DNA from: Lama guanicoe
Lineage: Eukaryota
Assembly (NCBI GenBank): GCA_013239625.1
Contig: MU053881.1
Coordinates: 12,414,879 to 12,478,878 of the forward strand
Length of the DNA stretch: 64,000 bases
Reading direction: 5' to 3'
Every line of letters begins with the position of its first letter. Position 1 is the stretch's first letter. Positions 5,236 to 55,508 of the stretch are shown piece after piece. The notes beneath the pieces were generated by a model. It was not told the origin of the DNA. It ran no database searches and saw nothing but the letters and a program-made list of their open reading frames with translations. Both the position numbers and the translations under genes were made by a program.

Positions 5236-5387
5236 TAGGTTTTTTGTTTGTTTTGTTTTTTTTTTGGTGGAAGCAGGTAATTAGGTATATTTATTTATTT
5301 ATTCTTGGGGGAGGTACTGGCGATACAACCAGGACCTCATGCTTGCTAAGCATGCACTCTACCACTTGAGCTATACCTCCCCCCTGG
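5236..5387 (-). mobile_element. Vic-1-type (camelid) tRNA-Ala-derived SINE
   Basis: Minus strand reads GGGGGAGGTATAGCTCAAGTGGTAGAGTGCATGCTTAGCA..., then (AAAT)n and an A tail. 15-bp TSD TATTCTGAGTAATTT at 5221-5235 and 5388-5402. Confidence 0.85.
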
Positions 5388-13007: not shown

Positions 13008-13604
13008 CTTTAAAAAGAAAATGAGAATAATTTTATGTAGATAATTTTACATCCAGTCAAAATTATAGAAAAATAAGTCAATTTTTTTTATTTTTTGAAA
13101 AATAAGTCAATTTTAAAGTGATGTTTATGCACACTTAACATAGAAAATGAATTATCTGAAGTAAAGAATTCAGAGACATGAACATCTTAAGGATACCATA
13201 CATGAATTTTAAATAATTTGGGCAAAAACAGTAAAGTATCAGGCCCACAGTTATCAATGTTTCTTTTCATTTCATTTTAATCCATTTTTGAATCTAAAGT
13301 TCCTTTTTCCATAAATCTGTGTTACACACTTACCTATTAGATTCTATAACTACTCTATAAATGGAAAACATAATTTTTAAAAAGCTGAAATGTCCTTTAG
13401 TCTTAAGAATTAGCCTTCATCGACTTCAAGAAGCTACTGATGAAAGTTTTCTCACTTCTGCTGAAGAGTGAAGTCAAACTCAGAGCTGCGGTTGTCATTT
13501 TACTTATTTTGACTGGAATTCTCCCAGTGTATTGATTTTACATAAAATCCAGACAATACCATTCCAACTTCAAATCCCCTTTGTTAAGAACAAAGATCAC
13601 ATAC

Positions 13605-13858: not shown

Positions 13859-14876
13859 CTAAAAAGACCATGTCTTTTATTATTATTCCATGTCTTTATC
13901 TTATTTCAGTTAAAAAAAAAGGATAATCTAAAACTCAGACCCATCATTTTGAAAATGTATCTCTGAGGTCTATTTCTCATGTGTGAAGCACTTAACAAGA
14001 TCTACTCAGACCTTAACTGTAGCCTATTAACCCTACATACCCACTTGGAACTAATTTTTTAGTAAACAGGCTAAGTTTCCTTATGTTTGGCCTCAGCACA
14101 TAAAAATTCTTACCTATTTTGGTTTGTTTAAATTACTGCAGAAAGCACTGTGTTCCAGTTGGACCAAATAAGTTACTTGGTCAAAGGCTTAAATGAGGAC
14201 TGAAATACCTTACAGCTTACGCACAAGAATGTTATGCTTTTCCAGGTTGTTTTCTTTGTAGTTAACACATATAAAATGTTTAAAAATACTTTGGCAAATA
14301 CTGTTTACTCTGCCCTATGTAAAAGCTCTATATACTACCAATCTTTTTTTATTTATCATTTTCTAAGTGTCTACAAGTCAAAATTTATCACCATCAAATT
14401 TCTGTCCACTTTAAGTTCCAGCTCAATTGAAACTTTAAGAAGCCTTTACTAGTATTTGTGCTCTCTCCTCTTAGAATCCCTCCAGCAATATATTTGTGCC
14501 TCTTTTGAGGTATAATGTAATTATTTTTCTTATTATGCTTTACCTATACGTTAACCAGTTCAAACATTATTCTCGCTAAAATTGTAACATACTAAAGGGA
14601 CAAATGTATGTTAGTCACCTGTGCACCATTTACACAGTCAAAGGTAGTGCTTGCACAGTGTCTAAAGAGTTGTTTAATTAGTCTGTTGAACAAGTTTCTT
14701 GAACCATTCCATTCAGCAAACATTGAGCTCTTTCTGTATCTGATGGATTGTGTTAGGTATTGAGGACTAAAAGATGAGTTTCATTTTAACTGTCACAATA
14801 TTTCATTACGTACCAGTGACCACAGGTGCACAGAGAAGTCAGATGTATTTTTAACAGTTAAACTCTGAAAGAAGGT

Positions 14877-14912
14877 GCCTCGTTAGTGCAGTAGGTCGCG
14901 TCAGTCTCATAA
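14877..14912 (+). pseudogene. 5'-half elongator tRNA-Met(CAT) tailless retropseudogene in CCNG1 intron 2
   Basis: GCCTCGTTAGTGCAGTAGGTCGCGTCAGTCTCATAA versus recalled tRNA-Met GCCTCGTTAGCGCAGTAGGTAGCGCGTCAGTCTCATAA. 12-bp direct repeats AAACTCTGAAAG at 14860-14871 and 14911-14922. Confidence 0.85.
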
Positions 14913-15537
14913 ACTCTGAAAGCTACACACAAGTCTTTCTTATCCAATATAGAGAATAATTATATATAAATAGTCCTCCAGAAGATACTCTTTACTATAT
15001 GCAAACTTAGGCTGAAAATGCCAAGCATAAGCAAGACTGGAGGGAATATAAGGCTAAAATAATTAGAACTTTATTATCTATGAATAGAGATTAAGAAATA
15101 CATGCTATCAAAAGGTGGTTGACAGCATCAGCAAAAAGAAAAAAAAAAAAGAAACAAATATTCTCTAATTCTTAACCCACAACCTAGCATTCTGCCTCTA
15201 ACACATTTCTCTAAATTAAAAACAACAGTAAGTAAATGAAAATGCCAACCTACCAAGACTTTTAAACACAACAGCCAACTCTCCTACTGGGAAACTCTGC
15301 AATTAATTATTTCATATGAGACTATTTTTCAGTGTCAGAAGTTAAGTCTAACAAATGATGCATTACTCTTGGTTAAAGGAAGAGTATCAATGCTGTACAT
15401 AGAATTACCATAATGTTACTTGTTGAAAACAAAAAAAGGTCAAGATTATGAATATCAGCCCAAAGGTAGCAATACCATCTCCAAAACACATTGAGCAGAA
15501 CCATGAAATACTCAGGGTAATGTAGCTTTAAACATAC

Positions 15538-32440: not shown

Positions 32441-32575
32441 TTTGTTTTTTTTGGTGGTGGTGGTGGGAGATTGGATTTTTATTTATTTATTTATTTTAAT
32501 GGAGGTACTGGGGATTGAACCCAGGACCTCATGCATGCTAAGCCTGTGCTCTACCACTGTTCTATACCCTCCTCT
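32441..32575 (-). mobile_element. Vic-1-type SINE
   Basis: (tatt)n followed by ggaggtactggggattgaacccaggacctcatgcatgctaagc...ctctaccactg. Confidence 0.85.
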
Positions 32576-55384: not shown

Positions 55385-55508
55385 TTTTTTTTGGTAGTGG
55401 GGAGACAATTAGGTTTATTTATTTATTTTTAGCAAAGGTGCTGGGGATTGAACCCAGGACCTCTGCATGCTAAGCATGCACTCTACCACTGAGCTATAGC
55501 CTCCCCCC
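55385..55508 (-). mobile_element. Vic-1-type SINE
   Basis: aattaggtttatttatttat...ctggggattgaacccaggacctctgcatgctaagcatgcactctaccactgagctata. Confidence 0.88.

Follow-up and report, generated by a model that had tools for sequence, protein, structure and literature searches.

The insert and its host intron

The window, a 64-kb stretch of Lama guanicoe DNA, contains on its minus strand an intron of 1679 nt (13859-15537), with a GT donor at 15537 and an AG acceptor at 13859, flanked on either side by a Cyclin_N-coding exon of a CCNG1-like gene. The N-terminus of the protein points to CCNG1 as the name of this gene, and a CpG island lying upstream at about 16.4-17.3 kb suggests that the intron is number 2. 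An Atlas search with the host protein returned Cyclin_N only, and a PDB search and a pairwise protein search with it returned nothing. Near the middle of the intron, about 615 nt from the donor and antisense to the host gene, lies a short insert at 14859-14922 which on the plus strand consists, in order, of a 13-nt repeat, the bases AAGGT, a GC-rich 36-mer, and a second copy of the repeat. The insert is likely neutral.

The 36-mer (14877-14912, plus strand) is a copy of nucleotides 1-38 of elongator tRNA-Met(CAT). An earlier sequence-only reading had identified it as the 5' half of this tRNA, altered by a single CpG transition and by the loss of 2 nt, and alignment to L025, an intact elongator tRNA-Met(CAT) gene of the same genome, agrees in each respect; BLAST of L025 against the whole genome returns the insert with E = 1.7e-8. 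Alignment with AGGT plus nucleotides 1-36 of L025 places the C>T change at tRNA C11 (window 14887) and the loss of AG, tRNA 21-22, between window 14896 and 14897; the match carries on through A37-A38. The tRNA part ends at tRNA 35-38, in the single-stranded region of the predicted anticodon loop. As was first noted, neither a 3' half nor an oligo(A) tail follows, and the right repeat directly abuts the tRNA part. ARAGORN and Rfam report no tRNA at the insert, because only half of a tRNA is present and the fragment is too short. A tRNA-derived SINE, which would have both promoter boxes, A and B, and a tail that is A-rich or a simple repeat, was considered and rejected, as the insert has neither a T-arm (B box) half nor a tail.

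The flanking repeats had been described as perfect over 12 bp; they are perfect, with a length of 13 nt. The sequence TAAACTCTGAAAG occurs at 14859-14871 and 14910-14922 with 13/13 identity, and the right copy opens inside the tRNA part, at U36, so that its first three bases, TAA, double as tRNA U36-A37-A38 and are the last three bases of the 36-mer. Beyond TAA and a 2-nt offset, the right repeat is identical to tRNA 39-46 at seven of eight positions. The left copy lies in a TT/AAA context of L1-endonuclease type, and its junction, GTT/AAAC, which had been read as L1-like, is a partial fit to the TT/WAAAA-like L1 consensus, which has four A. A duplication of 13 nt falls within the 8-35 nt range used for tailless retropseudogenes, and the 3-nt TAA overlap is of the sort expected in that class, in which the target complements the RNA over its terminal 2-18 nt. 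By itself the repeat is weak evidence, since the whole 64-kb window holds three close exact repeats of at least 13 nt; we read it as a target-site duplication because it brackets a tRNA fragment, as do the repeats in 56 of the 61 copies described below. Further close exact direct repeats at 13068/13097 (18 nt) and 48097/48173 (13 nt) are possibly small duplications or short insertions.

A public contig (run X13, possibly the source of this DNA) covers 14500-15100 with zero differences, and all 53 sampled words are present in 18 of 24 listed runs (4 organism labels, 5 studies; 14 flagged as a possible source), and an assembly artefact is therefore unlikely. The flanks of the insert match only themselves in this genome and are single-copy, with no empty paralogous site. 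At the locus, the filled allele was the only one found, recovered in one of eight read runs; that the other seven lacked the contig may be an effect of filtering and carries no weight, and part of the read search yielded sibling copies alone.

Source gene and pre-tRNA leader

A 16-mer from the insert has 28 exact matches in the genome and its reversed control has none. Seventeen matches are front halves that stop at the anticodon loop and 11 continue into the 3' half; ten of these 11 are called tRNA-Met(CAT) in place, the other being L007, with a diverged 5' arm. L007 (G000:C3348, near 102261) is a tRNA-Met 3' portion lying 174 nt after the intact gene L006 and is likely a partial tandem duplicate. 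Of the 11, it is L025 that matches the window copy best. L025 starts with G1, which marks the elongator type of tRNA-Met. The window copy differs from it at 0 of 30 non-CpG positions and 1 of 8 CpG positions; over all L025-type copies, the differences amount to 13 of 830 and 31 of 208 positions, respectively. Judged by its sequence, the window copy looks young.

The five bases before the mature 5' end, AAGGT, had been put forward as a possible pre-tRNA leader, which should then stand directly upstream of a source gene. The upstream sequence of L025 ends in TAGGT, and the leader is for this reason AGGT (14873-14876), identical to the 4 nt upstream of L025, with the first A (14872) left as an extra base. 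This A may be an untemplated base of the 5' junction or an altered 14th base of the duplication; L061 is a second copy that has it. The full AAGGT was rejected as a leader: L025 has T at -5, where 26 L025-type copies have A in 11 cases, T in nine, and G in six. In their respective tRNA-Met genes, the leaders start at an A that follows a pyrimidine, as expected for a Pol III start, and AGGT likely derives from such a start.

A family of tRNA-Met front-half copies

Five further searches, which included motif and front-half queries without a constraint on the 3' flank, brought together 62 half-copy loci. With the duplicate L092 dropped, 61 distinct copies remain, the window copy and the doubtful L069 included; this number is a lower bound, and the set leans toward young, well-matching copies, the first search having demanded a CATAA end. 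None of the front-half copies continues with tRNA sequence past the loop, and when a full-length tRNA was used as query, 27 of 30 non-gene matches ended at tRNA 37-39. In 56 of the 61 copies a target duplication spans 12 nt or more and has no more than one mismatch (median 15 nt); it starts at tRNA 33-38 in 55 of the 56 and at U36 in 40. Of the 47 copies scored for junction overlap, 43 show 2-4 nt, an overlap that in part follows from the T preceding the L1 nick site, and TTAAA is read at 19 of the 33 sites starting at U36. L069 (G000:C7146, near 105925) is a degenerate tRNA-Met-like sequence with no convincing duplication which continues as CTGAAAG, and it may be an old, longer copy. Another member, L067 (G000:C6476, near 14414430), is without about 8 nt around tRNA 22-30, near the 21-22 deletion of the window copy; this is possibly a place where copying slips, with L067 and the window copy as the only two cases.

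Sequence of 3-4 nt from upstream of a tRNA-Met gene is carried by 58 of the 61 copies. The four bases before +1 read AGGT in 28 copies, ATCT in 11, AGTT in eight, and ACCT in four, each of these being found upstream of some tRNA-Met gene, and seven copies match over 3 nt only (AGT or AAC). Two of the remaining three are one base off AGGT, and the third is L069. In an earlier set of 52 copies, the leader agreed with the sequence upstream of the best-matching gene of that copy in 43. This agreement ends at 4 nt: among the first 35 copies, the best gene matched 32 at 4 nt, 10 at 5 nt, and two at 6 nt. The leader is ambiguous only in L026 and L093, where the duplication can be read into it. L068 and L070, both L025-type, have AGAT in place of AGGT before +1, perhaps reflecting an older allele or an unfound gene.

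These leaders bear on the nature of the template. A cleaved tRNA half had been offered as one possible template, and a mature, stress-cut 5' half of tRNA-Met would have a length and an end point like those of known tRNA halves, so far as the available accounts describe them. Mature tRNA halves lack a leader. Since the copies carry gene-upstream bases, the template was most likely a precursor uncut by RNase P, and the occurrence of such bases in 58 of 61 copies speaks against a mature half, which we consider highly improbable; for the window copy it is largely excluded by the leader AGGT matching L025. We also weighed whether a piece of a tRNA gene had been captured at a double-strand break, given that leader and gene body are contiguous in DNA too and that the extra A and the 2-nt deletion could be repair scars. 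Against it stand 60 siblings with a fixed upstream limit of 3-4 nt, a fixed loop end, and median 15-nt duplications, and the possibility that the insert reflects either such capture or an assembly artefact, for which the unchanged public contig and the 18 runs noted above leave little room, is scarcely credible.

Proposed route of insertion

With the source gene, the leader, the duplication, the loop end, the site motif, and 60 like-built siblings in hand, the insert is very probably a tailless retrocopy of a 4-nt leader plus tRNA-Met nucleotides 1-38 within a 13-nt target-site duplication, with LINE-1 ORF2p, acting in the germline, as its most likely maker, in line with the earlier proposal of a tailless tRNA-Met retropseudogene from a leader-bearing pre-tRNA. 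The part of L1 ORF2p is suggested by the site motif together with the length of the duplication. ORF2p would have nicked the bottom strand at the TT/AAA site, and the freed, T-rich 3' end would have annealed to U36-A37-A38, which are unpaired, in a pre-tRNA that was still in the nucleus and still bore its leader. Reverse transcription could then have proceeded to the 5' end of its RNA template, with a second nick 13 nt away giving rise to the duplication. The C>T change is probably of later date, and so, probably, is the 2-nt deletion, though a slip during copying could also account for the latter. For priming, 2-4 nt at the anticodon loop most likely sufficed.

The same short pairing could have been made with an RNA that was already cut. 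If a leader-bearing pre-tRNA were cleaved by a nuclease in the anticodon loop, ORF2p might prime at the free 3' end through 2-3 nt of microhomology, and the clustering of ends at tRNA 36-38 is consistent with this, as is the interpretation given in a preprint on tRNA/L1 chimeras, the available part of which takes similar 1-37 fragments as pre-cut halves (bioRxiv 10.1101/2025.02.02.635956). However, the apparent end moves with the target sequence, with starts from 33 to 38 and overlaps of up to 6 nt, and no oligo(A)-tailed halves are present among the 61 copies. The tRNA-Met in question has no intron and so offers no route through the splicing endonuclease. For 5S and U2 RNA, the portion of Noll 2015 (PMC5322556) available to us reports no truncated intermediates and, for the class as a whole, favours internal priming. 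We consider a pre-cut precursor a possibility to be kept in mind but an unlikely one, and internal priming on the intact precursor is tentatively preferred.

Resemblance of the target to the tRNA continuation

The sequence-only reading had also noted that the repeat resembles the continuation of the tRNA and had suggested that the nicked target primed reverse transcription by pairing at the anticodon arm. This suggestion conflicts with a cleaved half, because pairing with nucleotides 39-46 needs an RNA uncut at the anticodon. At the window copy the likeness holds, at seven of eight bases after the 2-nt offset, with single-site p values of 0.034 (gapped score), 0.007 (6-nt run), and 0.004 (duplex energy) and a duplex of -11.5 kcal/mol when RNA parameters are used as a proxy. 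The null consisted of 2,500 random TTAA sites and shuffled continuations, compared by these three measures.

Across the family, no corresponding enrichment was found. The final test comprised 59 copies, with the window copy and the doubtful L069 left out; sibling targets scored a mean of 2.64 against the tRNA continuation and random TTAA sites also scored 2.64, and family means equalled the null in every such test. Target mimicry was accordingly rejected as a rule for the family, there being no average enrichment by any of the three measures, and the family lends it no support as a general mechanism. The chance that at least one copy would do as well as the window copy is 0.71 among 35 copies (gapped score), 0.20 among 52 (energy), and 0.34 among 61 (run length), ranging overall from 0.14 to 0.71 by measure and set size. 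Runs of 6 nt occur in two of the 59 other copies, L055 and L076, against 0.26-0.4 expected (p 0.035-0.06), an excess that appears at one of three cut-offs tried and is post hoc; for runs of at least 5 nt, two were observed against 1.8 expected, and 0 of the last nine copies reach 5. Only a weak, post-hoc tail of mimicry remains across the family. Individual siblings whose targets resemble the continuation are L055 and L076, each with a run of 6, and L023 with a run of 4; the repeats of L076 disagree with each other at the position corresponding to tRNA G45.

A more extended form of pairing may nevertheless select the site in a minority of events, the window copy among them. Under this proposal, the 13-nt single-stranded target end would open the anticodon stem, which is weak, in an intact pre-tRNA, pairing with nucleotides 36-46 across a 2-nt bulge. 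Besides the single-site p values and the 6-nt runs of L055 and L076, it is in keeping with the observations that pairing and duplication end together and that the anticodon arm, taken alone and without modifications, has a folding energy of only -1.3 kcal/mol. The supplement of Noll 2015 (PMC5322556) contains 60 human tRNA-Met(CAT) cases, and in the 30 of these rows available to us 19 span 34-38 nt, eight span 41-45 nt, and three are longer; the eight would suit a longer pairing, on their lengths only. On the other side, the window copy had been singled out beforehand for its resemblance, some copy this good is expected by chance at the rates given above, and the family means equal the null, with an excess solely at the run-of-6 cut-off. 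We regard extended pairing as rather improbable, and the longer likeness of the target to tRNA 39-46 is probably chance, at most a helper.

Relation to known elements and significance

The class to which the insert belongs is already published, namely, tailless retropseudogenes from unprocessed tRNA with complementary targets. The available descriptions of tRNA-derived tailless retropseudogenes (Schmitz et al. 2004, as cited in later papers; Noll 2015, PMC5322556) have in common with the window copy a 3'-truncated tRNA copy that ends in a loop, the lack of oligo(A), and a flanking duplication. As far as the available text of Noll 2015 goes, these elements come from processed or unprocessed tRNA truncated at loops, sit at TT/WAAAA-like sites where the target complements the RNA's last 2-18 nt, have target duplications of 8-35 nt, and include tRNA-Met(CAT) as a listed source; the search reported there allowed 20 nt for precursor sequence. 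The window copy differs in being from another mammal and locus and in having a 2-nt deletion and a bulged, non-contiguous likeness to tRNA 39-46. Near-universal leader retention, found here in 58 of 61 copies, is not stated in that available text. In the accessible part of the preprint on tRNA/LINE-1 chimeric insertions (bioRxiv 10.1101/2025.02.02.635956), the elements resemble the window copy in a tRNA segment of about 1-37, duplications of 9-19 nt, and an endonuclease motif; in contrast, the window copy is without L1 sequence, and that preprint prefers an explanation by pre-cut halves and twin priming. Kojima 2010 (PMC2912911) likewise describes young, 3'-truncated copies of ncRNA whose 3' junctions show short microhomology, with data from human and chimpanzee and, in the portion available, no discussion of leaders. 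Our literature searches for retention of the leader by retrocopies of tRNA, and for tRNA as a template primed by ORF2p, found nothing on point, which does not show either to be unpublished.

Taken together, the data indicate that the window copy is real, correctly classed, and ordinary, being one of the 61 tRNA-Met front-half copies collected here. Alone it matters little, being an intronic insert of 38 nt that is likely neutral and belongs to a published class, although the locus could become a presence/absence marker once orthologues are aligned. The family as a whole marks probable germline transcription starts of individual tRNA-Met genes. A broader reading would join two propositions: that L1 in this genome takes tRNA-Met almost exclusively in the form of a precursor with its leader, making the copies a base-precise fossil map of germline Pol III starts gene by gene (A at -4 in five or six genes, A at -3 in two), and that a minority of events, this one among them, involve a long target overhang which opens the unmodified anticodon stem, pairs across a bulge, and helps to choose the site. 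The two in conjunction we hold to be a doubtful proposition. Should bulged pairing beyond the junction hold true for many tRNAs, the picture of how ORF2p engages RNA that is not polyadenylated would be refined, although descriptions of the class already include complementarity reaching 18 nt.

Other tRNA-like elements are present in the window. Three tRNA-Ala(AGC)-like elements with A-rich tails lie on the minus strand at 5307-5381, 32500-32571, and 55432-55504, and have the look of a simple SINE of tRNA origin; SINEBase lists vic-1 as a SINE of this kind in camels.
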